From sequence record NZ_CP023526.1: 64,000 nucleotides of DNA. One strand, 5' to 3'. A model generated the notes under the pieces. The model ran no database searches and was not told where the DNA came from. It was given only the letters and a program-made list of their open reading frames with translations. The translations under genes were made by a program, and so were the position numbers. The stretch comes from a plasmid. How positions within the stretch are numbered: position 1 is the stretch's first letter; each line of letters starts with the position of its first letter. Positions 10,234 through 64,000 of the stretch are shown here, in pieces.

Positions 10234-11186
10234 AAAAATTCCCTGTTAAAGGCGGATTTACAGAAGCTATTAGGTGACAAAAATCTCAAAACAACCAACC
10301 CCATGCCTTTTTTTGGCAGAATATTCAGAACATTCTCTAACTAGTGATTTAGCTGAACTAAACAGTGGTGCAGTATCAGAAATGGGATTTAGAATATGCT
10401 GGATAAAAGCAGGCTGACAGTAACCTGGCTCATATCCCGCTACTAATCTTGTCTGCGTATTGCGCCATCCCTCCCTGTCACCAGTCGAATCTGTCTTTCA
10501 GAGCTATTTTAGCTCTGGCCCAGCATTTTCATCAGCGTACCTTAAAAGCAAAGCACCGAGATAATTTAGAAACTTTTTTGGCATTATTCAGAAACGGAAG
10601 CGAATATCACTGCAAAAAAGGTTTTTTCTCTAAAATAATCAGCCTGGAAACACCTTATTTGCTTTTACTAATACCTCCTCAATTTCTGGTCGCAACGCCA
10701 GGAGATATGGCCTGGATGGGGGTGAAATCCGGTGATATGACCGAGGCGACGGCACGAGGGTGAGCGCTGAGGGCGAGAACAACGTCCAGACCCGCCAGGG
10801 TGCCAGGGCCTTCCTGCTAGGGCATAATCAGATGGATAGCGGAAAAGACCGAAATTTCCAGCCGTTCGTGAAAGTCAACTGGCTGCATAACACGAAGCGT
10901 AATGGCGTGGTGATGAATGGCGTATCGCTGGAGCAGGCCGGGGCTGTCAATGTCGGGGAAGTAAAACTCGGTGCAGAAGGCCAGTTGATCCGCCAGACAG
11001 CGCTGTGGGGAAACGTGAGGCAGTAACTGGGAGACAGAGTACAGCAACACGGCGGCCATGGTGGGCATTAAGTACTCATTTTAATCAACCACAGAAATCA
11101 TCCGATCGGCCCTGTGCACTCCGCAGGGCCAACTGGAGCGTTGAACCCGATGTTCTGGTCATTTTTCGAACTAACGCTCAAAACAG

Positions 11187-21999: not shown

Positions 22000-22463
22000 A
22001 ATGATTTGAATCCTAACGTCCTGTAAATGGTAACGATATCCACTTCGGCGAACAAAATCGCCAGGCGGCTAGCAGCGGTTAAATGCACCGGATTAGCACC
22101 GCCTGTATCGACGGCGCGCAGAGATTTGACGGAAAGACTGTCAGTGATTTCGATACTTTCTGCCGTCTGGAGAAAAAGCAACGAGGCATGTGTGAGGGAT
22201 TTATTTTGCTGCACCAGGTGCGTCAAACCCAGCAGTCGCGACTGCTGGGAGCACATTGTTCTCAGACTGCTGGATCCCTTAGCATGAATCAGAAAAGTCT
22301 GCATAGGAGGAGACAGCAGCATTGGGAGTACGAGATAACTCAGCAGCAGGTCTCGCTCACGTGAGGCATATTTTTCATAAAATTGGTGAAGACAGGGTGC
22401 AAGCAAAATAGGGGATCGCTGAAGCGTAAAGAGATGATTGATGGCCTTCGGTTTCATTCCCAC
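21996..22463 (-). CDS. small middle component (LmuC/DdmB-like) of the three-gene ATPase operon
   Basis: 155-aa ORF. Its stop overlaps the ATPase start (ATGA), and its start overlaps the upstream gene's stop. Confidence 0.6.
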   Translation of the reverse strand: MGMKPKAINHLFTLQRSPILLAPCLHQFYEKYASRERDLLLSYLVLPMLLSPPMQTFLIHAKGSSSLRTMCSQQSRLLGLTHLVQQNKSLTHASLLFLQTAESIEITDSLSVKSLRAVDTGGANPVHLTAASRLAILFAEVDIVTIYRTLGFKSL

Positions 22464-34901: not shown

Positions 34902-35873
34902 ATGAACATAAAACGAAAAACTATCGGTAGAACTTTCACCCAGTCTCCGTTGAGCGAGTCTGCAGCAGGAGAGGATTTTAACCAGACGTTTATTCTCAAT
35001 TCAGGCAGATCCGTTGTTTTCACACTGCAGGTGATCAAAGCCGAGAATGTTGCGACAGAGACCTTCGTTGTGCCCGAAAATAATGGACGCGATCAGTCAG
35101 CACTCACCAAAGCGTCTCTCAAAGATATCACCAGGACACTGAAGCTTCAGCAATTCTTTCCCACTATTGGACGCAAGGTCGGTGATAAGATTGAAATTCT
35201 GGACGGTTCGCGCCGACGTGCTGCCGCGATTATCTGTAAAACAGGGCTGAACGTACTGGTAACGGACGCTGATATTTCAACGGAGGATGCCCGAAAACTT
35301 GCCTCTGACATTCAGACCGCGAAAGAGCATAACCTCAGGGAGGTGGGGTTGAGACTGGCAAGTCTGAAGAACAGTGGTATGTCTCAGAAAGAGATTGCTG
35401 AGAGTCAGGGTTTATCCCAGGCAAAAGTCACACGTGCATTGCAGGCCGCAATGGTACCTTCCGAAATTTTAGCTATTTTCCCTGTACAGTCTGAATTGAC
35501 CTACCCGGACTATAAACAGTTGCTGAGTTTAAGTGAATTTCTGGTGGAAAAAAACCTGACGGTCGATGACTTCCTGACAGAACTTGATCTTCAGATTAAC
35601 GCCGTGCATGCAAAAGAGAGTCACTCGTCTGAAGAAATCAAAAATGCATTGCTGGGCGTCATGAAAAAAGCGCTCACAAAACTCGCCTCACCGGCTGGAA
35701 AAGAAAAAGTGGTGACCACCCCACTGTGGATCTTTGCTGACAAAGATCGCTATGCCCGCAAAAAAACCAAAGGAAGGCAGCTTTCCTATGAGTTTAACCG
35801 CCTTCCCAGAGATATTCAGGATGAGCTTGATACTGCCATCAATAACATTCTGAACCGTCTGCTTGCCGACTGA
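34902..35873 (+). CDS. parB: partition protein ParB (P1 type)
   Basis: 323 aa. 'KIEILDGSRRRA', 'GMSQKEIA...GLSQAKVTRALQAA' and 'FPVQSELT' match P1 ParB. Confidence 0.85.
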   Translation: MNIKRKTIGRTFTQSPLSESAAGEDFNQTFILNSGRSVVFTLQVIKAENVATETFVVPENNGRDQSALTKASLKDITRTLKLQQFFPTIGRKVGDKIEILDGSRRRAAAIICKTGLNVLVTDADISTEDARKLASDIQTAKEHNLREVGLRLASLKNSGMSQKEIAESQGLSQAKVTRALQAAMVPSEILAIFPVQSELTYPDYKQLLSLSEFLVEKNLTVDDFLTELDLQINAVHAKESHSSEEIKNALLGVMKKALTKLASPAGKEKVVTTPLWIFADKDRYARKKTKGRQLSYEFNRLPRDIQDELDTAINNILNRLLAD

Positions 35874-37489: not shown

Positions 37490-38580
37490 TGATGATTTTA
37501 TATTCTCTTTCCAGTGGTTACTACTTTGTGCAATGATTTACTCTTTATAGTGGTTGTTCTCTGTAGCGGTTTTACTCTTCATAGTGGTTACTCTCTGTCG
37601 TGGTTTTACTCTTCATAGTGGTTACTCTCTGTCGTGATTTTACTCCTTACAGTGGTTATTCATTATGATGCCTGATCGGTTTAAAACCCGTTACACATAG
37701 TCTGAGATTTCTAGCAGACGGGTCATACTTCATCATGGTTATGTGTTGTCTGGTAGCTGTGTACCAGAGCGATTTTCTTGTCCGGGGGTATTAGCAGTTT
37801 AATAACAGGTTAATTTGCTGATTATACGGAAAGTTAAGACAGGAATGATGTGGGCCTGTTTACCGGAGATAGTGAGGTTCTGGTCAGCTGGGTCAGGGAA
37901 TAACATTGCATTTCGTAACCTGTGAGTTCCTTAACATTTACGATATTTACCTGGATGGAGAGATGGCCTATCTCATTAATACCTGCTGTGCTCTCGCTTT
38001 ACTTCGTTTGCGCTGATTACAACACCATCATGATAAACAGCATGGCGCTTGTTATGTATTGACTTATCCACTTATCCACCGGATAGATCCAATAATTAGA
38101 TCATAATATGATCCTCAAAAGATCAAAACAGATCACCGGATCGTCTGAGGGCTGTTGTACCAAGGGCTGAAGCGCTATTGCTATCCACTATAATGAGTAA
38201 AGTATCCACTGTAGACAGTAAGGTAACCACTATAGTGAGTAATTTAACCACTGTAAGGAGTACTCATCAACCACTGTAGTCAGTAAACTGTCTCTCTGGC
38301 TGTGAATATCATGAAGTGATCCCTTCCAGGCAAATGCTATGTTTTATTCCTCATTTATCCACAGGCTAGATCCAATAGTAAGATCCCAATGTTCATAAAA
38401 GGTCAAAAGAGATCACCGGATCCTGCAAAGCCAGAGCTGATAAGGCGTAGCAACGGATCCATATCCACTGTAAAGAGTAAACTAACCACTGTGAGGAGTA
38501 AATTGACTACTGCAGAGAGTAGAATAACCGCTATAGTGAGTGTTAGTATCCACTGTGTTGAGTATTCAGCATGCGTATGC
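37490..38580. promoter_or_regulatory. oriV: replication origin region: iterons (core AACCACTGT(A/G)(A/G)GGAGTA) in both orientations plus two duplicated modules, each with DnaA boxes (TTATCCAC) and GATC sites
   Basis: Inverted iterons lie at 37500-37670. 'cTTATCCACTTATCCACC' (38070..) and 'TTATCCACAGG' (38352..) are each followed by 'agatcaccggatc' and then 3-5 direct iterons. Several GATC (Dam) sites cluster here. Confidence 0.7.
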
Positions 38581-38603
38581 CAAACAGAATCGGGATAATG
38601 TAA

Positions 38604-39616
38604 TGGCTAATGAATCGGAAAATATCAAAGAGATAGCAACTGCTTTTGCTGAGGTGAAAAAGGGCACCGGCGAAGTTGTTAATCTGGTTCCTAACAGCAA
38701 TAATACGGTTCAGCCAGTCGCATTGATGCGACTGGGCCTGTTTGTGCCCACGCTGAAATCCACAGCCCGTGGCAGGAAGGGCCAGATGGCCACAATGGAT
38801 GCGACAGCCGAGTTAAAGCAACTGAGCCTGGTAACGTCTGAAGGTTTTGAAAATATCCAGATCACCGGTGCCCGGCTTGATATGGATAACGATTTCAAAA
38901 CGTGGGTTGGGATCATCCATGCCTTCGCAAAATTCAAAGTGATCGGGGATAAAGTCACCCTGCCATTTGTGGAGTTCACGAAACTTTGCGGCATTCCTTC
39001 CAGCCGTTCTTCTGCGGCGTTGCGCAAACGTATTGACGCGTCACTGCAGCGCATAGCAACGAATACGCTCTCTTTTACCAGCAACGATAAGGCGTATCAC
39101 ACCCACCTGGTTCAATCGGCTTATTTCGACATGAAGAAAGATATTGTGATCCTTCAGGCCGATCCTAAACTGTTTGAGTTATACCAGTTTGATCGTAAAG
39201 TTCTGCTCCAGCTTCGCGCCATCAATGAATTAGCCCGTAAAGAGAGCGCACAGGCGCTTTACACATACATTGAGAGTCTCCCCCAGGATATCAAGCCCAT
39301 CTCAATGTCGAGGCTTAGAGCCCGCTTAAATTTGACTTCTCGAACCATTACTCAGAATGCAACTGTTCGTAAAGCAATGCAGCAGCTAAAAGACATCGGT
39401 TATCTCGATTTTACCGAGTACCAGCGGGGCAGGGCGGTATACTTTCATATCCACTATAGAAGGCCTAAGCTCCGCCCGGCACATTTGCCTTCAGGCCTCC
39501 CGGAAGCGCCTGACGTCGATCCAGCTCTTGATGAGTTCGACGCAGACCAGATTCTGGCAACGCTCACCAAAGAGGAGCTTGAATTGCTCGAGAGTCTGAG
39601 GGGCAGCAAGAAGTAA
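38604..39616 (+). CDS. repA: replication initiator RepA (Rep_3 family, RepFIB/P1 RepA-like)
   Basis: '[23 protein letters not shown]...[22 protein letters not shown]...[15 protein letters not shown]...[19 protein letters not shown]...[14 protein letters not shown]...[12 protein letters not shown]' is collinear with F-plasmid RepFIB RepA and P1 RepA. The ORF-track start at 38540 is probably spurious. Confidence 0.85.
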
Positions 39617-40570
39617 CCACTGTAGTGAGTGCCAACCACTGTAACGTGTAGCTCCCTCTACTATCCAGCCTTCGGCTGGGCTGGGCGCACAGTGCGGTTG
39701 GCTGCGTCCTAACCGCGTGTAACCCGCATCGCTTCTGATATTCCCCGTTTATACATCGTCGAGCAGGCGGTCTGAATCGTGCTTTCAAAGGCCAAGCCGT
39801 ATTTTTCCCTCAGCTGTGATTAAACCTGTCTTTACGATAGTTACGGATCTACAGTGGGTCTTACTCCTTACAGTGGTTGGCATTTAATAGAGGTGTTTCT
39901 CACTCCAGTGGTTGTTGCCTTGCTGTGGACGTGACTCCCTGAAGTGCCCGGCGGACAGGAGAGGGGGCTGCTCACTGCAGTGGTTGTTGCCTTGCTGCGG
40001 ACGTGACTCCCTGAAGTGTCCGGCGGACAGGGAGGGGGCTGCTCACTGCAGTGGTTGTTACCTTGTTGCGGACGTGACTCCCTGAAGTGTCCGGCGGACA
40101 GGAGAGGGGGCTGCTCACTGCAGTGGTTGTTGCCTTGCTGCGGACGTGACTCCCTGAAGTGCCCGGCAGACAGGAGAGGGGGCTGCTCACTCCAGTGGTT
40201 GTTGCCTTGCTGCGGACGTGACTCCCTGAAGTGTCCGGCGGACAGGAGAGGGGGCTGCTCACTGCAGTGGTTGTTGCCTTGTTGCGGACGTGACTCCCTG
40301 AAGTATCCGGCGGACAGGAGAGGAGGTTACTCACTCCAGTGGTTGTTTCCCTGACGTGGGCGTACGTACGGTTGCCAGGACAGAGTGCTGCTCACTACAG
40401 TGGTTGTTGTCTTCCCACGAGAGTTATTCCTTACGGTGGCTGGCAGACCGCGGGAGAGGCGTATAGCTCTCTATAGTGGTTGTTTTCCTGTATCGGGTGC
40501 TACGTCTGACAGTGGTTGGCTGACCGAAAAAGGGAGATCGTGCTCTTTACAGTGGTTGTTACAACAAAGG
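39617..40570. repeat. downstream iteron/incompatibility array: about 6.5 tandem copies of a 60-61-bp unit (39905-40330), each containing one inverted iteron, plus degenerate single iterons to ~40570
   Basis: Unit: 'ctgctcactgcagtggttgttgccttgctgcggacgtgactccctgaagtgtccggcggacaggagaggggg'. Its reverse complement contains AACCACTGCAGTGAGCAG, which matches the upstream iteron core. Confidence 0.8.
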
Positions 40571-49420: not shown

Positions 49421-50562
49421 CTAACTACCTTACTGATGTCGTTGCATAACTTATGTATGCGGTGATGAGGTGGAATGAATATATGCTGTATATAACCGTT
49501 CTCAGGCGTGCTGAGATAATACTTGATAAATATATCATTCTCTCTTCTGTATTTCAGACACCACGTATCTTCCTTTTAAAAATGAGCCAAGTATATATTG
49601 TCCCAGCAACCTGAGATTGATTGAAGTACATAGAGAAACATCATATTAGCTGTGCAGACCATAAAAAATGGTGTTTATCCCATACCCTATGTTTTTTTTG
49701 AAATAGCCCGATTCCCCCCTCCTCGTACCCGGTTGCAGAATACAGGCAGTTGTGTGGAAACGATGCATATTTACTGGATGTCGATACCCATCATGCCCGA
49801 TGAACGAAGGGCCTCTTCCGCAAGGGAGGCCGCGTGGAAGTTGTCGGATCTGAAACAATGAAATATAGCGCTAAATCACAGAGGCACTGATCGCCTGATC
49901 TGGCCGCTTTCAAATCCATCAATATCAGCAGTAATGAACCACTGTAAAATATACCCCCTCTGCATATCTCTCCACGATTTCAAATAAAAAATAGGATTAT
50001 TCCTGCATTCTAACGCGGCGCATTTTTTCCATTTTAGATCCGGGGCTGAAAAACGCGGGCATGAAATGAATGATAAGGGATATATTAAAATATGCGTCAG
50101 TAAAAATTTTTACATGAAGATTTATGTCATCCCAAAGCACGCAGTATGGTGCACAGATGTGGAAGTGCGGTGCCCGTTAATGAATGCAGGAATAATGACT
50201 GCGAACGCTCTATCATTGATTTGTCAATATCACGGGGGAAGGGGTTTGGCTTCAACATTGGCCGACTTGCTGTTTCCTGGGCTTGAAGCCGGTATAGGAT
50301 CTATATTTTTCAGGCAAGATCGTGCTGGAGTTACTTATTCCGCCTTCGGTTTCAGAGGTAACGTGTAGACGGTTTCTATAGACACTGTCGGCCCTTTAGT
50401 TTTTAGCGTTCTGAGGTGATGGCCTCGCTGCTAACAAGATGGTTAAACCAGTTGCACATCACCTGGTCATCGACATATGTTCCTGTTTCATCCACTTTGC
50501 CCCGTATTGTCGTTAAATTTGTTATGGATTCCCCTTTGTCGTAACCAGAGCGATGTGGCGTG

Positions 50563-51125
50563 TGATCTTACGCAGCAATAGTGGACATGCGACTTAGCGA
50601 GTAAACTTTCAACAGAGGTAGCTCACATGACAAAGTCCGTATCAACCATAAAAAAGCCCCGAAAGCGGCACGCGCTTGAGTTCCGCGACGAAGCGCTGAA
50701 ACTTGCGGAGCACATTGGCATCGCTGCTGCTGCCCATGCTCAGTCTTTATGAATCCTGGCTATGCCTGACGTAGTAAGCAGCAGAATCAGGCAGCGTCTT
50801 CTGAGTGCGAGAGCGAACAGGCGGCTGAGTTTGCTAACCTCAAACATCAGCTGGCTGAGAAAGACGAGAAGCTGACCATTCTCCAAAAAGTCACGACAGA
50901 CTACACGAAGCGCCTGAAGTGAAGTCTGTCTTAACTGAACAACACCTGGCTGAATTCAGCATTAAAGCCATGTGCCGGGTACTGCGTGTGGCGCGCAGTG
51001 ACAGGTATGTCTGGCGAAACCGGCACAGAGTCATCGTTCCTGCCAGTGCTTCCGGCAGGGGCGACAACATCGACAGTAACGCCTTCGTTATGGCGAAGCA
51101 GCGCTACGGCGCACCTCGGGTGTGA
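50563..51125 (+). mobile_element. 5' fragment of an IS3-like element (IRL + orfA with an internal stop + first ~70 codons of orfB), 3'-truncated
   Basis: 'TGATCTTACGCAGCAATAGTGGACATGCGACTTAGCGAGTAAACTTTCAACAGAGGTAGCTCACATGACAAAG' nearly equals the IS3 left inverted repeat and orfA start. 'MTKSVSTIKKPRKRHALEFRDEALKLAE' and 'MKSVLTEQHLAEFSIKAMCRVLRVARS...KQRYGAPR' match IS3 OrfA/OrfB. Similarity ends at ~51125. Confidence 0.75.
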
Positions 51126-51553
51126 TGTGAAGGGGCGCTGCCAGCAGGGGACCTCAGTCTGGTCCATCATATTAACCGCAACGGATGCCTGACTGATTAA
51201 TCAGTGCGTGACCTTGGTAATGAAACATCTCACACAAGCTCAAAGCAGGACCGAGCAGGACGTTTTCCTGCCATGAAAATGAAGGTGGTTTCATTTTTAA
51301 ATATATTCAGAGTGTGAATAATTGCTATCACAAGGAAAATTTTTTATTGTCAAAGACCCATGTCGCACACAGATTCTTATCTGTCCAATGTCATTCAATT
51401 GCGGATTTTTATTCAACGCATAATATATTTAATAGAATGGTCCTAGTTTTAGTTACGTATTCTTGTGATAGATAATAGCACGAGGTAATCTGCTTTTCGA
51501 CATGGGTTTCTCGTTTTATATGTAGAATCTTGCTGAGGTTGACTAAATTATTT

Positions 51554-51582
51554 GCACCATCGGATTCGATGGTGCTTTTTTA
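51554..51582. terminator. rho-independent terminator GCACCATCGgattCGATGGTGC + T7
   Basis: Perfect 9-bp stem followed by TTTTTTAT, inside an AT-rich gene-poor region. Confidence 0.6.
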
Positions 51583-53072
51583 TTTCATGCTGTCTCACTA
51601 CTGATTGTGTCAAAAGGTATGATTTTTTTGTCAGCACAATGGCTTAAATAAATATCTTCATCCATGAAATGTCGGACGGCAGATTTTTATTATACTGTGG
51701 CTTCTGTTCTGGTGTTTTTCCTGTCTGCTGATCACGAAGACAGCCCTATCGTGAGGACATGTATGGTGAGGCTGTATCCCAACACTGTCTTTCTGGCGGT
51801 GTCAAACTATCACATTAATTTTATTTTGGTGTGTAGAGTGGAAAACGTTTTTGTACTTCCTTATAAAGTATTGTTTATTCAAGGAAACTCATGATAGAGT
51901 GCAAAATACACTTAAATAACAGCACTTTTAAAACTCTATATAATCAAATGGTAATTTCCCTGCGACTTTTTAAATATCCCGACATGACTGTTGCAACGCG
52001 TAAGCTCACCAGTTCTTCATGATTCAAACTAAGATAAGCAAATATCCAGTGGCTTAGTATTCACATTAAATTACTTTCAAAGTGAGATTTTTATGGAAGC
52101 AAATGGGATTGATTCGAAGAAACCCCCAACCTTCCGGTTATCCTTGTAGCAATATCATCAGTGTTTTACTTGGTTGCAAATCTGGTAGCACCGTATGCAT
52201 TCCTGTTGGTTTTTCTGGCGATGACGTGCATCCTCGCTCAGGATCGGAAGAATCCTCATGAGGCAGGCTATGCCTCTCTATCATGCTAGTTTATCGTTTT
52301 GTACCCTCTTTATTTGTGGCAGAGAGCAAGCTGTTTTAATGGGGGATAAAATACTTCTGGATCTGGTCGGTACTATTTACCTTACCGATTTTTGCTATCA
52401 CTTTATGTAGATACGCGGAACAAAAAGATGCGCTAGAAATCACATCCTGTTCTCTGGTCACTAAAATTTTCGGTTAACAGGAGCCTGCCATTAATGCAAC
52501 ATGCATTAAGGCCGCTACAGATTCTGATATACCGATGTTTTCCACAAGACTACTGCAACTCTTGATAATAGTGTTGATATAAAAATCACGATTGAAGAGA
52601 AAGGGGCCATGATATACGTCAGAGTCCCCCGAACTCACCATTAGCAGCCAGAGCAGGCTGAAGCATTCCTTCTTTACGCAGGGATGTTTATCGAAGAGCA
52701 CAATTACCATAAACCTGCGCCCATCAGGTCTGACCTCACGAATAGCATCATTGAAGCTCAGCCCAGTTCGTCGAAATACTCACTGCCGTTACCGAGAAGA
52801 GGTAGCACATTCAGATCCTTGAAGAGTGAGGATGCCCCGCAAACTGAGAAGACCAACCTCAGTCTTGTCAGACTGAACACTATCGGGCAGTTTTCGCGTG
52901 TGCTCCGGGTTGCGTAACCGAACCACTGAAGACGTCTCTTATTGCCTGACGGTTGTTAACCGAAATGATCACCTTACCCTGCATGGCAGAACTCAGCGTC
53001 TGTTCAGTCATTTGCTGATACTGCTCAATGCCGAAGGGAATACCATACCCCGCCGTATTCTGGTAAGGCGGA

Positions 53073-53519
53073 TCAAGTTAGTTGTGTGGCGTGCCGGATT
53101 CTCCGTCCGGCATGGTCGTGTTTGTGGGTGCCGATTTTGACGCTGTAAATGGTGCCGCTGGCGTAGTTGATATTGCCGATAATTGTGGCTGTTGAACCTT
53201 GATCATTGTCCCCGCCCACAGACATGCCGCTCTGGCCAGTCAGCGGCCTCTGCACGGTGACCTTCTGAGTCGCGGTCACCTTCGGGGTTTTCACCATCAT
53301 GCTGTCTGACGCCTTAATCACGGCTTTTTTGCATTTCAGGTGCCAGTCATTGCAGGTAGTCTCGAGGATTGTGCCTTTCTTCAGGATAATGGAGGCCCGT
53401 TCATCGGTGTAGATGGCCGTCGCCCCTTCAGGTGGCAGGGTGGTGATGCCGTAGTGCTGAAACCGCTCCACATCCAGAAAGGTTTCCGGGGCCATACCCT
53501 CAAGCGGGGTGGTCTGCAC
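53073..53519 (-). pseudogene. phage baseplate assembly protein V (P2 gpV-like) remnant
   Basis: '...GSTATIIGNINYASGTIYSVKIGTHKHDHAG' resembles the C-terminal spike region of gpV ('LHTHKH...'). It is isolated, with no neighbouring tail genes. Confidence 0.45.
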
Positions 53520-54650
53520 ACCCTCTCCAGGGGTTATGCGCGTGGGTTTTGTCCGGAACGGGCGACGGATGGCGCTAAGGGCCGCCGCAGGCGGTAAAAT
53601 CCATCAGTGTATATCCTGCCAGGTATTCCACAGCAGCACTTACCCTTAGCCTTGAGTTTACGGCGCGAGCGCGGGGGACGTATCAGCTATCCAGCTGCAG
53701 CGTGAGTACGGTCATGAGAGGCTGCCTGCTTCCACCAGCAGGGCCTCAATATTGCTGAGCATCGTCAGTCGCTCGCCGAACTCTTCCCGGTCTCACAGGC
53801 CAGTACATCGCGGTAGGTTTCATCGTCCCATCTGAGGCAGGTTTTACCGGTGTGGGTGAGGCGGATCGGATTACGTCTCATGGAAATGGCCTCAAATTCG
53901 GGAGAAAAAGCGGAAGTGACTGTAATAAAAGAACCCGTACGAGGGCGGGGTTTTGAGCCAGTTCAGTGTTCAGTATTAACGGTCAAATTGGATTACATGG
54001 CAATTATAAAGTCCATGCTCACTTTTTTCGACCGTCATTCACCCAGACGATCCCCCAAATGATCACAAGGATGTACATAATCATGATGCGAAGTTCCATA
54101 TCGTATCCTTCCAACAAATCAGGGACCTGCTAGCACCGCTAGAAGGTCAGAACGTATCAGCCGAGACTCATGCCGGAGGGCGTTATCATTACCTCCACAG
54201 ACAAAACAACTGCTGCCTGAGTTTTCACTATACGCACCTTTAGTTCGAACAACTCCGGAACAGCCCACTAACGCGCCCGGAGCGCGAAGGCCAGCATCAG
54301 AGCAGTAAACGGTAACAACGTGACAGTAAATATAACGATGGCGAGTATTTTCATGAAATGCTCATTTTCAGTTGTCGCTTAACCATACAGGAATCAAACC
54401 AATGATTAGCGAAACAGATACAATTGCAACACAGAGACACAACAAAAACAGATATAAGCAAAACATAGCAACACCAAAGGTAAGAAAATGATGATTATTT
54501 TCTCGCGAGTAAAATCACGTTTTCGTAAACGGCCACATAAAGAAATATCCTAAACACGACATATCGTACATATATGTGATGCGGGGAAAATTTTCGATAA
54601 CCCAAGGGCCCGCATGATGGCGGGATTTTGGGTTATTTTGATGCGCAAGG

Positions 54651-55190
54651 TTACTCCGGGTGATCAGATTTTAATGTGATTTTACATTCGGTTATGAATT
54701 CATTTGTTGCTTTTGTTACCCCCCGAACGCCGAATTTTTCCTCCATATTTTCGCTCATCCCACGAAATCCAACGATCACATCTGCATTTGCGCTGTGAAG
54801 CTGGTAAAGAAGATGGTTAATGCCACTGCTCTCATCCTCGTCGCCCTTTGTAGACATCTGTACATAGGAGTAATTATCGCGAGTTTGCCATAATACACCC
54901 GTCACCTTGACTGGCTGCCCACCATCAATTCTAAAAGATAACACCCCCACATCGGGTGAAAGCTGAAATGGTTTACCATTTGAACCAAATTCAACTTTAA
55001 CCTCCTCTGGGGTGCATACCAAGATCAAAGTGTTGGGGCCATGAGAAGTTTCGATTTTGACACTTTTCGCATCTGAAAAAGCGTCATCCGTAACGCTTAC
55101 ATTCCAGTCGCTTGAAGGAGTTCTTAACCAGGAGTAAAAACCAATAATTAAGAGCAAAACTAGCAATCTTATTTTATTTATGTATTTTTT
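54651..55190 (-). CDS. hypothetical exported or membrane-anchored protein (start MKKYINK...)
   Basis: About 180 aa with the N-terminal hydrophobic 'IRLLVLLLIIGFYSW'. The ORF-track extension to 55304 overlaps the upstream gene and is probably not translated. Confidence 0.5.
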   Translation of the reverse strand, partial: KKYINKIRLLVLLLIIGFYSWLRTPSSDWNVSVTDDAFSDAKSVKIETSHGPNTLILVCTPEEVKVEFGSNGKPFQLSPDVGVLSFRIDGGQPVKVTGVLWQTRDNYSYVQMSTKGDEDESSGINHLLYQLHSANADVIVGFRGMSENMEEKFGVRGVTKATNEFITECKITLKSDHPE

Positions 55191-55473
55191 CATCAACCAG
55201 CAACTCCGTGGCGTCACTTGTAATTTGAGCCCATAAATCATCATTTGATTTCTTATCGATAGATTCATGTGATTTAGGTCTTGTAACTGCAGGAGATGCG
55301 CCATCTACAAACCAAACCAGCACCCCTATACCAGCAGTCGCGGCAATTAAACGGAGAATGTAATAGATTTGTTCATAAATATTTTTGGCATTAAGATCCA
55401 TATAAAACCAGGCAGCATAGGCTACGATGAGAGCTGCAATTGTTTTTTCCACTCTCTGCCTCAGCATTAACAT
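55174..55473 (-). CDS. small two-TM membrane protein
   Basis: 99 aa. TM segments 'IAALIVAYAAWFYM' and 'LIAATAGIGVLVWFV'. Its end overlaps the start of the next gene by 17 bp. Confidence 0.5.
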   Translation of the reverse strand: MLMLRQRVEKTIAALIVAYAAWFYMDLNAKNIYEQIYYILRLIAATAGIGVLVWFVDGASPAVTRPKSHESIDKKSNDDLWAQITSDATELLVDEKIHK

Positions 55474-55815
55474 ATTGAACCTCCAGTTATAAAACTAATT
55501 CTCAGGGCGAGGTTTGTTAGTGCTCGCACTTTAATCAACGCTGGAATAAAGGTCACTATGAATGGCCAGCAACTTCAGAATTATTGATTTAACGCAACAG
55601 TTATCAGGAGAAATGTCTGGAAAGTTGAATGACCTGTCAACAAAATAAAAGCCTCACAGTCCGGGCATTGAGATTTTTTTGCGTATGACGCTGGTGAACG
55701 AAGAGACTAAATTTTACCCAAAAGTTCTTCTGGTATCCACGTGGGTACCGGCACCGAAAGCCACTGAATGATATCCGGCAGCCCAGCATTTTACGGGTCG
55801 TAAATTTCCCCGTTA

Positions 55816-56283
55816 TTAGAGGCACACCACAGAATGTGATAGTCGTAACCGCCGTGGGCCACTCCGGCCTCGCAGTCTGAAAGGGGGGCTCCCCGGTTCG
55901 CCAGCGGGTATCTTCGCTAATATCCTGCGAGGCAGCCATCCCAATCTTTCCGCCCAGAATATCCGTTCCCGCACTGAAGGGCGCTCCTTCCCATCGGGAA
56001 AATCAAAGACGAACGCCATTTTACCCATCGCTATTCCCCTCTCCGGTTTTACGTCTACCCGGCATGTTGCAGGGACACTCTTCCGGATCACTGCCTTCAC
56101 TTCTGCAACCTGTTCAGGTGGTACTACAATAATCCCGGTGTAAATGCCTGCTGGCCTGGTGTCCCAGTGAAAACATTCGATGAACTCTCGTAAGACGTAT
56201 GCCCAATGGACGCCACGCTGGACAGTGAACCTGGTGTATTCCACAAGATCAATGTCGTGGGCATTAGTATCATACTGTGCCAT
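55816..56283 (-). CDS. hypothetical protein, possibly frameshifted at its 3' end
   Basis: The first ~115 aa look protein-like. The tail is Arg/Pro-rich low-complexity. Confidence 0.3.
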   Translation of the reverse strand: MAQYDTNAHDIDLVEYTRFTVQRGVHWAYVLREFIECFHWDTRPAGIYTGIIVVPPEQVAEVKAVIRKSVPATCRVDVKPERGIAMGKMAFVFDFPDGKERPSVRERIFWAERLGWLPRRILAKIPAGEPGSPPFRLRGRSGPRRLRLSHSVVCL

Positions 56284-56589
56284 AACGCATACTCCTCCCA
56301 TTCGTTACCGCGCTTCCACGTGTGCATCACACCGTTAATCTCGGGCGCCATCACCTTCAATTTGCCAGCCCACTGTTCCATGGCGGTCTCAGGCCGACCT
56401 TCTCTGGTTGGAACATTTCATGCGGCTCAGCGGCTGTGAGATAATCTATCTCAATGTTAACCATCTTAATCAGAAGGTTAAGTCATGCCACAAGAGCAGT
56501 GCTCGCCACTTTCCAGCACCGGCAGGCTGCTGTGCGGCCGGTTATTATCATGCTCAACCAGATTCGGTCCGCTGTTCCCATGTGGGCAC

Positions 56590-56719
56590 CTTGCGCATTG
56601 CCCCCACGCCAAGGCATAGACAGTTGTTAAAGATTGCAGAAGTCGAAGGGGTATCAATGGACTGGTTATTAAATGGTACCGGGGAGGTGCCAGTGCTTGA
56701 GATAAAGAACCAGAAATGA
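56590..56719 (+). pseudogene. C-terminal fragment of an XRE/phage-repressor-type HTH protein
   Basis: 'RQLLKIAEVEGVSMDWLLNGTGE' is the typical end of an HTH_3 domain. No intact N-terminus is present. Confidence 0.35.
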
Positions 56720-57914
56720 ACCATTTCAAGTAATGCAGACCAAATTCAGATGGAGATGCTTTCGTTTCTTTGTGAAGAGAAAAAACGAGGGTTACTTGAA
56801 GAGGTGGAAATGAAAGGTGTTGATATCGTTGTTTATTTTCTTGATGAAGACAACAGAGGTCGCTCCCGTAGTAAAGGGGAAAATGCTTTGAAGCCAGCCA
56901 GACCCGGCCCAGGAAGCGGCTCTGAATACACAGGAGAAAAGAGATCGTGACACTGATAGCGAATTACAAATGACCGAAAACGATCTAGCCAATATTGCAA
57001 AAAACAGGTTAGATGAAATATATTCTGGCAGGTATTTTGTCAGGTTTTTTTCTGGCCTTTGGCTAATAAACAGGCAGCGAAAAGTTTTGCGCTCTCGCTA
57101 TTTAAATCAATTTAAATGGTATTAATTTCAGAATAATCGAGTGCAGAATTATGATACATAAAAGTCGAAACGATCAAGTCTTTCAGACGAGCTCGATCGG
57201 CGAAAAGTTGTTCCCGGCCTCACAGATGCCCCAGATTTCCATTCCTGAATATAGTCACATTATTTTTTCTGAGTTGTGAATTAAATCGACTGGATATGCC
57301 CTGATGTAAAGTGCAGATTTTATTCCTGAACACCGGGATTTCAGAGACCCGTTGTTGATGCCTTTTATAGCTATTTGAAGGCCCCTGAAGCAATGGCGGT
57401 GTTTGCCCGATATGGTTTTAACATTTTGTCCAGTCTGCATGTGAAAGGAATGTCGTAACGGCGCGTCTAAAAGCTATAACAGATAAATGAAAATGGCCGG
57501 AAAGGGGCTGAGACACATTTTCAGACTATTCTTTCTGATATCAATATCTGGTCTGTCGACCATTTTTATTATTTCTTGACTTGCGTCTTTTTTCTTCAAA
57601 ATTGTCTTCCTGCTTTTAAGTAATGTCTCTCTTTGTAGTGGGTTTCTCCTGTATTCATTTAATATATGATGCGTGCTGTTTTTTTAAATTTAATTAAATT
57701 GATCGATGTCAATGGATAATAATATTTTCTTGCGTGAAAAATTGTAATGGTTATAAATGATTTGTTCATTTCATCAAAACATTAAGGGGTATGAACAAGG
57801 ATTCGATAACTGAAAATATTATATTTTTTATGAAAGAGAATGCAAGTAAAGACAATATGAGTCTGGTTTAGGCTTGGGTTGTCGTATTTTTCAGTAAAGA
57901 TGAGGAAAGGTGGA

Positions 57915-58661
57915 ATGGCAGCAAATAATGTTGCATTGGTTACGGGGGGAAATGGCGGTATTGGTTCCGCCATTACGAGAAGATTAGTGAGTGACGGGTT
58001 TCGGGTGATTGTTGCCTATTCTCCGGCGGAAGAGTCTGCTGCACAGAAGTGGTATAGAGCAGAAGAGTATTCTGAAAAAGACGTTACATTACTTCCCATG
58101 GATGTCACAGATACCAATGGCTGTGAAAGGAATATCAATAAAATACTGGCGACTGAAAAATATATTGATGTTCTGGTCAATAATGCCGGTATTACCCGGG
58201 ATGTCGCGTTTAAAAAAATGTCAGCCTCTCAGTGGGTTGATGTCATCAATGTCAACATAAATAGTCTGTTTAATGTAACGCGTCCATTATTTCCTGCCAT
58301 GTGTGAGAGAGGGTATGGCCGAATTATCAATATCTCATCCGTGAATGGGCTGAAGGGGCAATTCGGTCAGGTTAATTACTCCACTTCAAAAGCTGGGGTG
58401 ATTGGGTTTACAAAAGCCCTGGCGGCTGAAGGCGCTAAGGTTGGGGTCACGGTTAATGCCATTGCACCAGGTTATACCGGTACCCCGATGGTGGAAGCCA
58501 TGAAGCCTGATGTTCTCGCCGCAATTACAGAAGAAATACCGGTACGCCGGCTGGCCACGCCTGATGAGATCGCTGCTGCAGTTTCTTTTCTCGCCAGCCG
58601 GGAAGCGGCTTATATCACCGGCGAAACACTCTCTGTCAACGGTGGTCTGTACATGCGCTGA
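57915..58661 (+). CDS. phaB: acetoacetyl-CoA reductase (NADPH, SDR)
   Basis: 'VALVTGGNGGIGSAI', 'NNAGITRDVAFKKM', 'GRIINISSVNGLKGQFGQVNYSTSKAG' and 'LSVNGGLYM' match Ralstonia PhaB almost block for block. RBS GAGGAAAGG. Confidence 0.85.
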   Translation: MAANNVALVTGGNGGIGSAITRRLVSDGFRVIVAYSPAEESAAQKWYRAEEYSEKDVTLLPMDVTDTNGCERNINKILATEKYIDVLVNNAGITRDVAFKKMSASQWVDVINVNINSLFNVTRPLFPAMCERGYGRIINISSVNGLKGQFGQVNYSTSKAGVIGFTKALAAEGAKVGVTVNAIAPGYTGTPMVEAMKPDVLAAITEEIPVRRLATPDEIAAAVSFLASREAAYITGETLSVNGGLYMR

Positions 58662-58687
58662 GGCGTACTTCTGGAAGGTTGAAACAA

Positions 58688-59890
58688 ATGCGAATTTTTA
58701 TTGTTGCGGCCAAGCGTACGCCGATAGGCAGTTTTAGGGGGGCGTTCAGCACCGTGCCTGCCGTCACGCTTGGCGCTGCCGCGATACAGGGGACTCTGGC
58801 CGATAGTCGAATTGATGCTGGCATTGTAGATGAGGTCATTGTGGGCAACGTGATTGGCGCGGGCCAGGGGATGGGGATCGGGCGGCAGGTTGCTGTGCAG
58901 GCAGGTATTCCTCACCATGTCCCGGCCTACAGCCTGAACATGGTGTGTGGCAGCGGAATGAAGGCTGTGATGGAGGGGTGTGCACATATCAAAGCTGGTG
59001 AGAGCCGCGTTGTGGTTGCCGCCGGGACCGAAAATATGTCTCGCATTCCGTTCGCGCTGGATGCGCAGGTACGTGGCGGTGTCAGACCGGGTAACGTTGA
59101 GCTGCAGGATTTGCTGATCAGCGACGGACTTACCGATGCTTTCCACCAGTATCACATGGGGCTCACGGCGGAAAATATTGCGGTGAAGCTTGGGATCAGC
59201 CGTGAGCAGCAGGACCAGTTTGCGTTTCTGAGTCAGTTCAAGGCGGCGGCGGCGCTAGAGCAGGGGCGATTTAAAAAGGAAATTATTCCTGTTGAGGTGT
59301 CGGGGCGACATGGTGTGAGCCGGATAGACCAGGACGAATACCCTAAGCCCGACACCACACTGAGCAAACTGTCCCGCCTGACCCCGGCTTTTTGCGCGAA
59401 AGGTACTGTGACAGCCGGCAACGCATCAGGTTTGAATGACGGGGCCAGCGCCTTGCTGATTGCGTCCGAGGAGGCAGTTGAGCAATACCGGCTGGAGCCG
59501 ATGGCGGAAATACTCAGTTACGCCCAGGCTGGTGTGGATCCAGAAATTATGGGGCTTGGTCCGGTTCAGGCCACCCTCCGGGCGCTGGCAGGAGCCCGAT
59601 TACGCCTTGATGAGATAGATATCTGTGAATGTAACGAGGCATTTGCCGCCCAAACCCTGGGTGTGCTGCAGGAGCTGTCTCGGGAGACGGGGGTGTCTTT
59701 CGACACCCTGCTGGCCCGAACAAACCCTAATGGTGGTGCTATCGCGCTCGGACACCCGTTGGGGGCATCGGGTAACCGGATCGTAGTTTCTTTGCTTTAT
59801 GAAATGCGGCGTTGTGGAGCCCGACATGGACTGGCAACGCTTTGTATCGGCGGTGGTATGGGAACGGCCATTATTCTGAAAAGTCTTTAG
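58688..59890 (+). CDS. phaA: acetyl-CoA acetyltransferase (beta-ketothiolase)
   Basis: Thiolase signatures '[11 protein letters not shown]' (active Cys), '[14 protein letters not shown]' and '[12 protein letters not shown]'. Confidence 0.9.
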
Positions 59891-59951
59891 CTTTTTGGAA
59901 GGTAATTCTCTTTTACAGTTGTGATGCTGTTTAATTATTAATTAAGGAATT

Positions 59952-60305
59952 ATGGATATGTATACACAAGCTTTCAAAAATTTTTCTGAGCAATATGAAA
60001 AAATCTTTAGTCCTTATACCCGGCTGAATAAACTCGTGGCAGAGAAAATTCAGGTTCTGACGGAGATGAATGTCAACGCACTGCAGACCTATAGCCAGGA
60101 AGGCACGACGACGCTGACGGCGCTTAGTAACGTGAAAGACTTCTCCTCCCTCACGAGTTTCAACAGCCAGCATTTACAAAGCCTGGCAAAAGTGACGCAG
60201 CAGTGTATTGACGATTGCCATCGATACAGTGAAATCGCAAAGCAGTTTAAAAAAGAAGTGGATGCGATACTTTCTGAAACCACAGCGCAGGTAAGATCTG
60301 CATGA
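59952..60305 (+). CDS. phaP: phasin-family PHA granule-associated protein
   Basis: 117-aa all-helical protein ('FKNFSEQYEKIFSPYTRLNKLVAEKIQVLTEMNVNALQTY...') located between phaA and phaC. Confidence 0.6.
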   Translation: MDMYTQAFKNFSEQYEKIFSPYTRLNKLVAEKIQVLTEMNVNALQTYSQEGTTTLTALSNVKDFSSLTSFNSQHLQSLAKVTQQCIDDCHRYSEIAKQFKKEVDAILSETTAQVRSA

Positions 60306-60365
60306 TAACGTCTCCGGCCTTATTCGGGGATACCGGGTAAGGCCGGATCATAAAGAGACAGCACA

Positions 60366-62099
60366 ATGATTGGAACGTTGATGTTAAATTATATTGATGC
60401 CCTCATCCGCATTAGCAAGGGAGGGGCTGACGATAACCCTCATTCTCCAGGTGGGATCCTTTCACCGATATTAAACAAACTCTATGAGATTAATATGGGG
60501 GATCTGAGCGCGGCGATGGCCTTGCAGTTTCAGATGTCTGAGGGCATGAATGAGCGATGGCAGGTCTGGTGGCAGCGACAAAGTGAGCTGATGTCGGGGG
60601 CTGGCTATACCGACAAAGAACAGCTGTTTTCGGCTCCGGAATGGAACAATGCGGATGCCTATACCTGCATCAAAGATCATTATCTTTACATCAGTCAGCT
60701 GATTGAAAATAGTGTGTCGTTATTACAATGCCAGGATGAAACGCTCAACATGCGCCTGAAATTTTTCAGTCGCCAGTTTTTGAGTGCGTTGTCTCCGGCT
60801 AATTTTATTTTTTCCAACCCTGAGGTTGCTGCGTTGACTGCGAAAACGCAGGGAGAAAATCTGATCGCAGGGATGAACAATCTGCTCGAGGATGCCCGGT
60901 GCAGTAATGAGGTACTGAATGTCAGGCAAGTCAGTAAAACAGCTTTTATGCCGGGTAAAAATCTGGCGACAACCCCGGGCGACGTGGTTTTCAGGAATGA
61001 AATTTGTGAGATTATTCAGTATCGGCCTTTAACAAAAATGGTTGAACACACGCCATTGCTTATCATTCCTCCGCTCATCAACAAGTTTTACATACTCGAT
61101 CTCAGTGAAACAAAATCGATGGTCAGGTGGCTTCTTGAGCAGGGGCATTGTGTCTTCATGTTGTCATGGAAAAACCCGGATCACTCTCAGCAGAATACGA
61201 ACTTTGAAAACTACGTTTTGAATGGCGTGGTCAAAGCGGTCAGTGTGGTAGAAAGCATTACCGGCAGCGATCAGGTTAATGCGGTGGGGTATTGCCTTGG
61301 TGGCACCTTACTGGCGGCGTCGGTCGCTTATTACGCGGCCAGAAGGATGAAAAAACACATTAAGAGTGCGACCTATCTGGCAACCATTATTGACTTCTCA
61401 ATGCCTGGTGAGCTGGAGGTGTTTTGCGATCCTCAACTGATCGCCGTGATTGATGAACAGAACCGGCAGCGGGGGTACATGGATGGCCGACAGCTGAATG
61501 TGACATTTAATTTATTGCGTGAGAATACGTTGTACTGGAATTACTACGTCGATCGCTATCTCAAAGGAAAATCGCTGAGCAGTTTTGATCTTCTCTACTG
61601 GAGCAGTGACAGCACAAATATGACGGCAGCCTGTTGGTACGATATTGTCCAGGGATTCTACCTTGAAAACCGTCTTGTCCAGCCCAGGTCGTGCAAAATT
61701 GGCGGCGTCTATATTGATATCACAAGGGTGGATATTCCGGCTTATTTTGTTGCAACGCAGGAAGATCACATTGCGTTGTGGCAAGGCGTTTACGAAGGGG
61801 CCCGATATTTTAAAGAGCATGCCACCTTTGTGTTGGGGAAATCAGGACATGTGGCCGGGATTATTAATCCGCCTGCCAAAGGAAAATATGGTTACTGGGA
61901 AAATTCGCAACCCTCTGAATGCCCTGATCAGTGGTTGTCGAATGCGCATGAGCATGCAGGTTCATGGTGGGAGCACTGGGGCCGTTGGTTAAAAGCAACA
62001 GAGAAAAAAGAACCGGTGACCGCGTATGCTACCGGGAATGAATTGCATCCCGTTTTGGGGGCAGCACCGGGTGAATATGTTATGGAAAAATTGGTTTAA
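60366..62099 (+). CDS. phaC: class I poly(3-hydroxyalkanoate) synthase
   Basis: 577 aa. Lipase box 'GYCLGG', 'LIIPPLINKFYILDL' and 'VFMLSWKNPD' are typical PhaC blocks. Confidence 0.85.
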   Translation: MIGTLMLNYIDALIRISKGGADDNPHSPGGILSPILNKLYEINMGDLSAAMALQFQMSEGMNERWQVWWQRQSELMSGAGYTDKEQLFSAPEWNNADAYTCIKDHYLYISQLIENSVSLLQCQDETLNMRLKFFSRQFLSALSPANFIFSNPEVAALTAKTQGENLIAGMNNLLEDARCSNEVLNVRQVSKTAFMPGKNLATTPGDVVFRNEICEIIQYRPLTKMVEHTPLLIIPPLINKFYILDLSETKSMVRWLLEQGHCVFMLSWKNPDHSQQNTNFENYVLNGVVKAVSVVESITGSDQVNAVGYCLGGTLLAASVAYYAARRMKKHIKSATYLATIIDFSMPGELEVFCDPQLIAVIDEQNRQRGYMDGRQLNVTFNLLRENTLYWNYYVDRYLKGKSLSSFDLLYWSSDSTNMTAACWYDIVQGFYLENRLVQPRSCKIGGVYIDITRVDIPAYFVATQEDHIALWQGVYEGARYFKEHATFVLGKSGHVAGIINPPAKGKYGYWENSQPSECPDQWLSNAHEHAGSWWEHWGRWLKATEKKEPVTAYATGNELHPVLGAAPGEYVMEKLV

Positions 62100-62515
62100 G
62101 AGGATGCAATAAAGCGCGATGACAAGTGTATATGGTGTCTTCAAAAAGGGAGGAAATAAGAAGATGAAAGACTTTATTCTCTTTATTGATCTTATGGTCA
62201 CGCACTTTAATCGGAATTTGAATGATGTCCTGCTGATGCTTCCCATTTCTGACGATGAGCGAAATGAGCTATCTGTACTATATAAACAAACCAAAGAAAT
62301 ATTGATTCCTCCCTCTCATACTCAGCAGAAGTGACGGGATAAAACGGCTATCTTCGTTGAAGAGGGGAATTCTTATGCCTCCCCGGGGCGATTTCTTATC
62401 GCGTGCGGTGTGCCTTCGGGGAGCCGGGATGTCCCCGGCAATGCGCCGGGTGGGAACGTCTGTATTTTCCTGCCCAGGCCGTACACGTTACGGCCACCCC
62501 TGCGGATGCTGATGG

Positions 62516-62863
62516 TTGAAAAGGGCGCGTGCCCAGGAGTATCGAGTTTGTATGAAGCATAAAATGAATTCAGACACCGGTAAATGCATGATGTGTGGCC
62601 ATCCCCTGCCTCTGCAGACTGTCCAGAAACTCTGCGATCGTTGCCTGTCTGTCTTTTCCCCCGTATCCGGTAGTCGAAAAATAATGCGGGCGATGTTAAT
62701 GCTGTTCCTGGTGATTATCATCGGTCTGGTGCTGGAGGGGCTATGGGCAACAGGTACCATTGCCCCACACAACTGGTTTTGCTCTTCACGTGCGAGAAAA
62801 TCGCTGTCCGCGAGAAAGGGGGACATGGACAGTATATTCAGGTTGTACTGCTCTTCCATTTAA
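62516..62863 (+). CDS. hypothetical zinc-ribbon membrane protein
   Basis: 'CMMCGHPL...CDRC' Cys pairs followed by the TM segment 'AMLMLFLVIIIGLVLEGLW'. Start uncertain (internal MKHKMN). Confidence 0.35.
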   Translation: MKRARAQEYRVCMKHKMNSDTGKCMMCGHPLPLQTVQKLCDRCLSVFSPVSGSRKIMRAMLMLFLVIIIGLVLEGLWATGTIAPHNWFCSSRARKSLSARKGDMDSIFRLYCSSI

Positions 62864-64000
62864 TATGTTGATTAAACTGCATTATTTACCATCTCTGAAA
62901 CCAAAAGGGGGGGGTAAGGGGCAAGCTTTTTCAACGCACCAGCTTACTGTGAAGCATATTCACCTGGTCGCCGCTCAGTTCTTCAATCCAGGCAGAATAG
63001 ACTTCGTAAACCATTTACGCGTTTTCATGTCCCATCTGACTAGCAATAAAAGAGGGGTTCGCACTGGCCGATAATAACCAGCATGCTTAAGAATGGCGTG
63101 TATGGTAGGGATTCCGGCGGCGAACTCCAGCACGTTTTACAGCGGCGTCCCAGCACTCACCAATGCTTGATACGCTGTAATACGGTTTTTGTTCACCTTT
63201 ACGCATGCGCGGCATAAAAACAAAGCGTAGGTGTTGGGTTTCCGTGCGGCCATCAAGTCCGGTCTTCTCTGCGAGTGATCCATTCCTCGTTAAAAATGAC
63301 CTGTGACATGCTGCACCTCAGCTCGGTTACACCCTTTAGTGCGTCCGTAATTTAAAAACTGAACTATGGAAATCAGGCGCCAGGGCGGCGCCCGCTGATC
63401 ATCGTTTGCTCTTATCTGGTGGCTTCACGCCCACGGACTTAAACTTCGTGAGCGTTACCATTACTTACGCAGCGCCGCAGCTGCCAGCTGTATCTGATGG
63501 CTGGGTGATTGTGCCGAAGGAGGCGACGGCGGAGATGATTTCCTCTGGTATCTGCGCCCACTATGGCCATAGCAAAATTCAAATTCATGGTAGGACTGCA
63601 GCGGGTCCGATGGAGTGTGCTTATGTGGCTTATGAATACATTACTAACATCGCGGTGTATTAATCAACGGGGAGCAGGTCAGAGGAATGAAGAGCGGTGC
63701 TAATGGTTACAAACGGGTATTGCTAAGGTCAATATGGGGGTTGCATTCACTGGCCTGTTTATTTGTGAACGCTTATTATGAGTGGCCAACTAACATCAGG
63801 CTGGTTGCTATGATGTTACCCGGCACAAGAAGCGTATAACCCTGCGTTTTGATTTCAAACATTGGGAGCATGGTTATTCTGTAAGAATGTGCCACACTTC
63901 CAGTTATCGTCCAGCCGCGTTGCTAACCCGAATGAAAAATTTTCGCTCACACCACCTATACCGCATTGCCCTGTCGATTCTTGTACTTATCCTCTGCTTG

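Follow-up and report, generated by a model that had tools for sequence, protein, structure and literature searches.

An intact Vibrionaceae-type phaBAPC operon for predicted polyhydroxybutyrate synthesis as very probable accessory cargo on a large RepFIB plasmid-type replicon of Cedecea neteri

The phaBAPC cluster and its described relatives

Enterobacteriaceae serve in textbooks as the standard case of bacteria that make polyhydroxybutyrate (PHB) only when given engineered pha genes. The closest described systems to the cluster reported here, namely phaB, phaA, phaP and phaC at positions 57915-62099 of a 64,000-nucleotide stretch of the plasmid sequence record NZ_CP023526.1 (the entire stretch being referred to as the window), are the phaBAPC operons of Vibrionaceae. 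The operons of Vibrio alginolyticus LHF01, V. natriegens and Photobacterium ganghwense share with it the order and orientation of the four genes, a class I polyhydroxyalkanoate (PHA) synthase (PhaC) and a phasin_3-type phasin, and the B-A-P-C order is also present in V. sagamiensis, V. ichthyoenteri, V. renipiscarius, a Vibrio metagenome-assembled genome and Veronia nyctiphanis (loci L005-L009). Among named organisms, the closest matches of each of the four proteins are likewise in Vibrionaceae, with identities of 60-67% for PhaB, 56-61% for PhaA, 39-47% for PhaP and 47-54% for PhaC. The window cluster differs from the Vibrionaceae operon in its location, which is an enterobacterial RepFIB plasmid-type replicon as against a chromosome in Vibrio, in the addition of two conserved small genes after phaC, and in the cofactor loop of PhaB, which is acidic (PAEES) where that of Vibrionaceae reads TGK. 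In V. alginolyticus LHF01, the operon, cloned with its native promoter and overexpressed, doubled the amount of PHB (PMC9941669).

The phaCAB system of Cupriavidus necator (Ralstonia eutropha) shares the three-enzyme chemistry, a class I synthase and the Cys-Asp-His triad, and its synthase structures (PDB 5hz2 and 5t6o) can be aligned with the catalytic domain of the window PhaC at E ~1e-100; it differs in the order C-A-B, in a phasin and a phaR gene that are placed elsewhere, in a PhaB with an NADPH-binding Arg pair, and in sequences that are far more distant. An earlier note on this DNA had set the gene order against that of Ralstonia; the difference stands, but the order is not unusual, being that of the published Vibrionaceae operons. 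The synthase of PDB 9knj, which we take from its sequence to be the PhaC of Aeromonas caviae, an enzyme accepting C4-C6 monomers, has lipase-box, Asp and His positions identical to those of the window PhaC at an identity of ~42%. Aeromonas clusters are organised as phaP-phaC-phaJ, not as B-A-P-C.

It is very probable, in our assessment, that the window holds an intact Vibrionaceae-type phaBAPC PHB operon, which belongs to the accessory cargo of a large RepFIB/ParAB plasmid-type replicon in Cedecea neteri. Nothing in its chemistry, enzyme classes or operon type is new, and the automatic RefSeq annotation names the proteins correctly. The four open reading frames (ORFs) lie co-directionally on the + strand, as had been noticed before, with intergenic gaps of 26, 61 and 60 nucleotides (nt), the first of them counted to the phaA ATG at 58688; it is this co-directional B-A-P-C order, together with the short gaps, on which the assignment to the Vibrionaceae type is based. 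Shine-Dalgarno sequences are recognisable before phaB, phaA and phaP, the ribosome-binding site of phaB being GAGGAAAGG. The GC content of the cluster is 49.7%, and the value of about 47% previously given for it is instead that of the whole window (47.2%). Families were assigned with NCBIfam models and their curated cut-offs, plus a Pfam domain scan, and the initial assignments of PhaB, thiolase, phasin and class I PhaC were borne out, each protein exceeding its curated cut-off. All reading frames and active sites are intact.

Enzymes, predicted pathway and downstream genes

The synthase gene phaC (60366-62099, + strand) encodes a single polypeptide of 577 amino acids (aa) and 65.3 kDa, identical in sequence to WP_061277002.1 / ATF95527.1 of C. 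neteri, in which a PhaC_N domain (PF07167) is combined with an Abhydrolase_1 domain (PF00561). It scores 669.1 bits against the class I model TIGR01838 (cut-off 622.65), 396.6 bits against the class II model TIGR01839 (cut-off 855.4) and 144.6 bits against the class III model TIGR01836 (cut-off 365.3), and no PhaE or PhaR subunit domain was found in the genes beside it, which are phaP and a 56-aa ORF. The lipase box GYCLGG that had been spotted at the outset is present at residues 308-313. The catalytic triad, the loss of which would have spoken against a working synthase, is conserved as C310 (GYCLGG), D467 (QEDHIALW) and H495 (KSGHVAG) in alignment with PDB 9knj, 5xav and 5hz2. Among solved structures, the best match is PDB 9knj (596 aa; residues 40-575, E = 7e-145), and the catalytic domain aligns to PDB 5xav, 6k3c, 5hz2 and 5t6o as well. 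On these matches, PhaC is assigned as a class I PHA synthase, for which a short-chain polymerising activity is predicted.

The phaA gene (58688-59890, + strand; 400 aa) is assigned to a biosynthetic acetyl-CoA acetyltransferase, with 460.5 bits against the thiolase model TIGR01930 (cut-off 240.55), Thiolase_N and Thiolase_C domains (PF00108 and PF02803) and a match to the acetyl-CoA acetyltransferase of PDB 8k1c at E = 1e-140. An alternative TTG start at 58679 would lengthen it to 403 aa; its relatives are called from the ATG, at 400 aa. In the 403-aa numbering, the catalytic residues are kept as C90 (VCGSG), H359 (GHPLGASG) and C389 (LCIGGG). For this protein, the scores of the narrower equivalog models for PhaA and BktB stay under the cut-offs, and it is thus a thiolase II and not an ortholog of the PhaA/BktB equivalog subfamilies. 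Between phaA and phaC lies phaP (59952-60305, + strand; 117 aa), the product of which is a phasin with 108.2 bits against TIGR02809 phasin_3 (cut-off 65.85) and 47.1 bits against Pfam Phasin_2 (PF09361; cut-off 24.9, E = 2.8e-12).

The first gene, phaB (57915-58661, + strand; 248 aa), is assigned to an acetoacetyl-CoA reductase of the short-chain dehydrogenase/reductase (SDR) family, with 369.7 bits against TIGR01829 (cut-off 302.1), a Pfam adh_short domain, and the motifs TGGNGGIG at residues 10-17, SSVNG at 141 and YSTSK at 155-159; its top PDB matches are all acetoacetyl-CoA reductases. The cofactor-discriminating loop after beta-2, at residues 34-46, reads AYSPAEESAAQKW, and the same loop in PDB 3ezl, an NADPH-type PhaB of Burkholderia, reads GCGPNSP-RRVKW. 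The Arg-Arg of PDB 3ezl is aligned with Ala-Ala in the window PhaB, inside the acidic loop SPAEES, and all Cedecea-type PhaBs are acidic at this loop. Judged by these residues, the window PhaB may prefer NADH.

By homology, the pathway would begin with PhaA, in which Cys90 would act as the nucleophile with His359 and Cys389 to turn two acetyl-CoA into acetoacetyl-CoA; PhaB, as a Ser-Tyr-Lys SDR enzyme, would convert acetoacetyl-CoA to (R)-3-hydroxybutyryl-CoA, which PhaC (Cys310-Asp467-His495) would then polymerise into PHB granules, and the phasin PhaP would coat these granules. The genes are likely to be carried on one transcript that would start in the AT-rich DNA before phaB, stop at a hairpin near 62.38 kb and probably include the 56-aa gene. 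We infer that the operon is expressed and that PHB accumulates in the host, where it would serve as a store of carbon or reducing power and, as proposed in the earlier note, might bear on stress tolerance or persistence. The upstream region (56440-57914, + strand; 39.6% GC) is non-coding and is presumed to be promoter or regulatory DNA. Promoter-like hexamers upstream of phaB are not above their frequency in shuffled sequence, so that no promoter is assigned, and the region cannot be aligned with that of L002, a metagenomic locus that represents an 80% relative of the cluster.

Downstream of phaC, a conserved 56-aa gene (62164-62334, + strand) starts after 64 nt, is preceded by the ribosome-binding site GGGAGG, and is a probable fifth gene of the operon. 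Its protein is conserved at 97% in L001, 78% in L002 and 57% in L013, and the ratio of nonsynonymous to synonymous substitution rates (dN/dS) of the gene is 0.11 against L002. No Pfam family was matched by the protein, and two short homologs only were found among 1.8 billion representative proteins; single-sequence AlphaFold predicts a two-helix hairpin (predicted local distance difference test score, pLDDT, 73), which is a generic fold. A terminator-like hairpin with a T-rich tail (62376-62390, + strand), recognised by pattern match only, likely marks the end of the operon. Farther downstream, a conserved gene of ~103 aa (62552-62863, + strand) encodes a CxxC...CxxC zinc ribbon and one hydrophobic helix, with a borderline match to Pfam DUF2116 (treble clef; 26.6 bits against a cut-off of 26.8). 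With its counterpart in L002, which is placed alike relative to phaC, this protein shares 60% identity, and the dN/dS of its gene in that comparison is 0.19. Both small ORFs are absent from the Vibrionaceae loci compared; the two genes are co-conserved with phaBAPC in the Cedecea-type clade only.

Replicon, origin and alternative readings

The earlier description of the surroundings as an enterobacterial plasmid is well supported by the identity of PhaC and RepA to C. neteri proteins, by parAB and by an iteron-flanked Rep_3 origin. The window RepA matches "RepFIB replication protein A [Cedecea neteri]" at 100% identity; contig UAVU01000009.1 of a C. neteri assembly from the National Collection of Type Cultures (NCTC) is 99.96% identical to window positions 28604-49610, and DNA of Cedecea sp. 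NFIX57 is 95-97% identical to positions 50307-63567. Near-identical PhaCs occur in the NCTC assembly (SQC92024.1), in Cedecea sp. NFIX57 and in contigs of the Joint Genome Institute (JGI). The maintenance genes comprise parA (33693-34892, + strand; 399 aa), which is of the P1/F type with an N-terminal HTH_54 domain, parB (34902-35873, + strand; 323 aa), and repA (38603-39616, + strand; 337 aa, or 358 aa from the alternative start at 38540), which encodes a Rep_3 initiator (Pfam Rep3_N). Three iteron arrays with 34-, 21- and 72-bp spacing lie around rep, together with two TTATCCAC motifs: iterons are found at 37505-37660, iterons with DnaA-box-like motifs at 38069-38562, and the array with 72-bp spacing, of ~8-10 units, at 39853-40560 downstream of repA, the repeat families of the replication region (37505-40560) being D1-D9. 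Read together, parA, parB, repA and the iterons constitute a complete iteron-plasmid maintenance region. The array at 39853-40560 looks like one for incompatibility or copy control. The window has an intact ParA, which is split in locus L017 of the NCTC assembly.

The suggestion that the cluster is horizontally acquired cargo is supported by a genome scan, by the accessory RepFIB replicon situated among insertion sequence (IS) elements, by unrelated flanks in L002, and by the confinement of the cluster to a few Cedecea records. In the scan, peptide patterns from the query itself were used to search 185,579 species-representative genomes, among which no close copy of the cluster was found and only Vibrionaceae were recovered; the Cedecea-type module is therefore missing from the representatives, including any of C. 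neteri, which fits strain-variable accessory DNA. A megablast of the cluster against complete Escherichia coli genomes gave no match. The closest counterparts outside Cedecea, loci L002-L004 from JGI metagenomes (Enterobacterales), encode the four proteins at 79-81% identity in the same order, and both small genes are present. Similarity of L002 DNA to the window is limited to positions 57924-62330 and 62547-62805, and the flanks of L002-type loci, on contigs of up to 614 kb, are unrelated to the window, with a modA-like gene, a lytic polysaccharide monooxygenase, a chitinase, an invasin and an IS605 remnant; no plasmid genes were found in the 10-kb flanks read of these loci. The L002 ModA is ~60% identical to orthologs of Rahnella, Ewingella and Serratia (Yersiniaceae), and its host is assigned by such sequence matches to the Enterobacterales. 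Inverted or direct repeats around the module amount to short chance-like pairs only, and no mobile-element boundary is claimed.

Side observations on these loci concern mobile elements and co-occurrence. In L002 (12631-13017) and L014 (~10090-10234), the pha module is followed by IS605/TnpB remnants that have no counterpart in the window; the L014 fragment is 88% identical to Klebsiella plasmids, and such remnants may hint at movement of the module. The JGI sample 3300066759 (L003, L023 and L026) holds the Cedecea RepFIB replicon, a Cedecea-type pha cluster (99%) and the 80% pha cluster of the other Enterobacterales lineage, so that both pha hosts co-occur in it, and loci L016 and L025 come from JGI 3300066812.

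The nearest PhaC sequences are those of Cedecea at 99%, followed by the JGI metagenome protein at 80%, a handful of metagenomic proteins at 56-62% (loci L013-L015), and then Vibrionaceae at 47-55%. A neighbour-joining tree of PhaC (26 sequences, 576 columns, Kimura distances, rooted with PDB 9knj) places a Cedecea-type clade as sister to a Vibrionaceae clade, both of which are monophyletic with bootstrap support of 100/100 each, and the window PhaC is not nested in the latter. Diversity is greater within the Cedecea-type clade (51-99% identity) than among the sampled Vibrionaceae (66-99%), and members of the former show the B-A-P-C order wherever it is readable. With their deep sister-group position and only 44-55% identity to the Vibrionaceae sequences, the Cedecea-type PhaCs point to an acquisition that is either old or from an unsampled lineage; we infer horizontal transfer of the operon, its source being a lineage as yet unsampled that is related to the sampled Vibrionaceae but lies outside them. 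Vibrio, Photobacterium and Ralstonia, which the earlier note had named as typical carriers of such clusters, thus provide no sampled donor that fits.

Selection on the module was estimated as dN/dS by the Nei-Gojobori method against L002, where dS is ~1.0-1.4 and near saturation, so that the ratios are overestimates if anything. The values are 0.074 for phaB, 0.087 for phaA, 0.116 for phaP and 0.088 for phaC, and those of the four pha genes against the 99% relative are 0.03-0.19. This long-term purifying selection argues that the proteins have been functional through the history that separates the hosts of the window cluster and of L002, and such low ratios argue against decaying or permanently silent cargo.

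Several observations weigh against a functional PHB operon on a plasmid. A phaR gene, for which a check near the cluster had been proposed, was not detected either in the window or in the 10-kb surroundings of the related loci L001 and L024, and neither the PhaR family nor the PHB-depolymerase (phaZ) family was matched by window ORFs of at least 150 aa or by genes called within 10 kb in the same two loci. A missing phaR is normal for the phaBAPC operon type; the lack of phaZ leaves polymer mobilisation unexplained, though Vibrionaceae with this operon reportedly lack phaR and phaZ too, as described for P. ganghwense and two Vibrio strains carrying this cluster type (PMC8087987). The open-access literature yielded nothing relevant on PHB or PHA in Cedecea or Enterobacterales, nor a natural phaBAPC in the latter, and the C. 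neteri genomics paper is silent on replicons and pha genes. Silencing of the AT-rich upstream DNA in an enteric host is conceivable, and the cofactor loop of PhaB, being unlike that of characterised NADPH-dependent enzymes, leaves its cofactor uncertain. As for the replicon, the related records are contigs of up to 254,496 bp for the identical PhaC, of up to 369 kb for JGI and of 721,732 bp for the NCTC protein SQC92024.1, and a megablast of the cluster against 72,556 PLSDB plasmids gave no match. The low GC content upstream of phaB, promoter matches at chance level, no recognisable regulator gene and a literature without a reported phenotype would also agree with a cluster that is intact but cryptic, transcriptionally silent in Cedecea and contributing nothing under normal conditions; this is distinctly unlikely, because the six module genes, at dN/dS of 0.07-0.19 over a deep divergence, and the four pha genes, at 0.03-0.19 even against the 95-97% relative, point to sustained selection for protein function, and frames and active sites have stayed intact beside plasmid DNA that is gene-poor and IS-rich. 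It is highly improbable that the end product is something else, be it a copolymer or medium-chain PHA, secreted 3-hydroxybutyrate, or a fermentative redox sink with an NADH-preferring PhaB: the acidic residues in place of the 3ezl Arg pair would suit such a product, as would the C4-C6 range of the closest solved PhaC, 9knj, if this is the A. caviae enzyme, but the class I model is above its cut-off with class II far below, the operon provides just the steps that lead to the C4 monomer, and the homologous Vibrio operon makes PHB. A redox-sink role is, moreover, compatible with PHB synthesis and no true alternative to it. In a broader and distinctly unlikely scenario, the cluster would be no stray set of Vibrio genes but would belong to a distinct PHB lineage long established in Enterobacterales, made up of phaBAPC with the clade-restricted 56-aa helical protein and the zinc-ribbon membrane protein. 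Its PhaB would then have turned to NADH, PHB would take up electrons during fermentation in facultatively anaerobic enterics, and both small proteins would act in place of PhaR as new components, either on the granules or in regulation.

Two further alternatives concern where the operon resides and whence it came. The replicon lies inside the 721,732-bp contig in the C. neteri NCTC assembly and other PhaC contigs measure 254 and 369 kb; these sizes, the empty PLSDB search and the finding of no conjugation genes among window ORFs of at least 150 aa would all be expected if the replicon were not an autonomous plasmid, being instead an integrated plasmid or island in the chromosome or part of a chromid. 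We regard this as unlikely: parA, parB, repA, the three iteron arrays and the DnaA-box-like motifs form a complete maintenance set, RepA has its closest relatives among plasmid initiators from various Enterobacterales, and the 47% GC, HipA, Lamassu and many IS elements are typical of large accessory plasmids. Long-read assemblies can, furthermore, concatenate plasmids. A recent direct capture from a Vibrio, Photobacterium or Ralstonia donor, to which the Vibrionaceae affinity of the four proteins and the identical gene order would lend themselves, is barely credible in view of the low PhaC identity to Vibrionaceae, the monophyletic sister clades with full neighbour-joining support, and the two small downstream genes that are in no Vibrionaceae locus; on the PhaC phylogeny, a recent Vibrio or Ralstonia donor was rejected, and for the sampled taxa it is effectively refuted.

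An intact PHB operon as plasmid-type cargo of Cedecea reveals no new chemistry; a natural and selectively maintained operon of this kind is nonetheless a useful curiosity. It would offer a set of pha genes with prior adaptation to enterics, potentially convenient for expression in E. coli, as well as a tractable system for the role of PHB in a gut- or insect-associated enteric bacterium. At the same time, the phaBAPC architecture is extended past Vibrionaceae into a deep and almost unsampled sister clade.

Other features of the window

Upstream of the cluster, the ORF at 55816-56301 (- strand) has no Pfam match at E <= 1e-3 in the window scan; the related loci L001 (2795-3280) and L024 (1348-1770) carry a precomputed match to Phage_Mu_Gp45 (baseplate), and the ORF may be a phage remnant beside the pha module. 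Coding density in the window is low, with ORFs of at least 150 aa covering 47% and those of at least 100 aa covering 60% of it; 39.6-46 kb and 49.4-54.6 kb are examples of sparse regions, and gene calls in the related loci are mainly short orphans that match no Pfam family.

A Fe-dependent alcohol/glycerol dehydrogenase gene adjoins a fused Dak1-Dak2 dihydroxyacetone kinase gene at 1846-4744 (+ strand), and the pair has 80.8% DNA identity to genes of an Enterobacter bugandensis plasmid, where the annotation reads glycerol dehydrogenase and DhaK. Photobacterium produces PHA from glycerol (PMC8087987), which makes the sharing of one replicon by a route from glycerol to dihydroxyacetone phosphate and a PHB operon suggestive.

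Defence and addiction functions are also represented. A three-gene Lamassu-type anti-phage system (19987-23788, - strand) comprises LmuA (22454-23788), LmuC (21996-22463; Pfam ABC-3C MC3) and LmuB (19987-21999; DUF3732), all on the - strand, with a PADLOC LmuB match at E = 3.5e-113. For a 621-aa DUF7380 protein (14779-16644, + strand), PADLOC gives a match to PDC-S39, a candidate defence family, at E = 8e-87, and a gene for a HipA-like toxin kinase of 426 aa (25217-26497, - strand; HipA_C, E = 7e-49) is likely a plasmid addiction or persistence module.

The window contains IS3, IS110 and IS26-like elements. An Rfam match to isrN, an Hfq-binding small RNA, lies at 19021-19163 (+ strand; 145.6 bits, E = 3e-32), inside an IS3-family element at ~18.3-19.5 kb that is ~90% identical to IS3 copies on Klebsiella plasmids.

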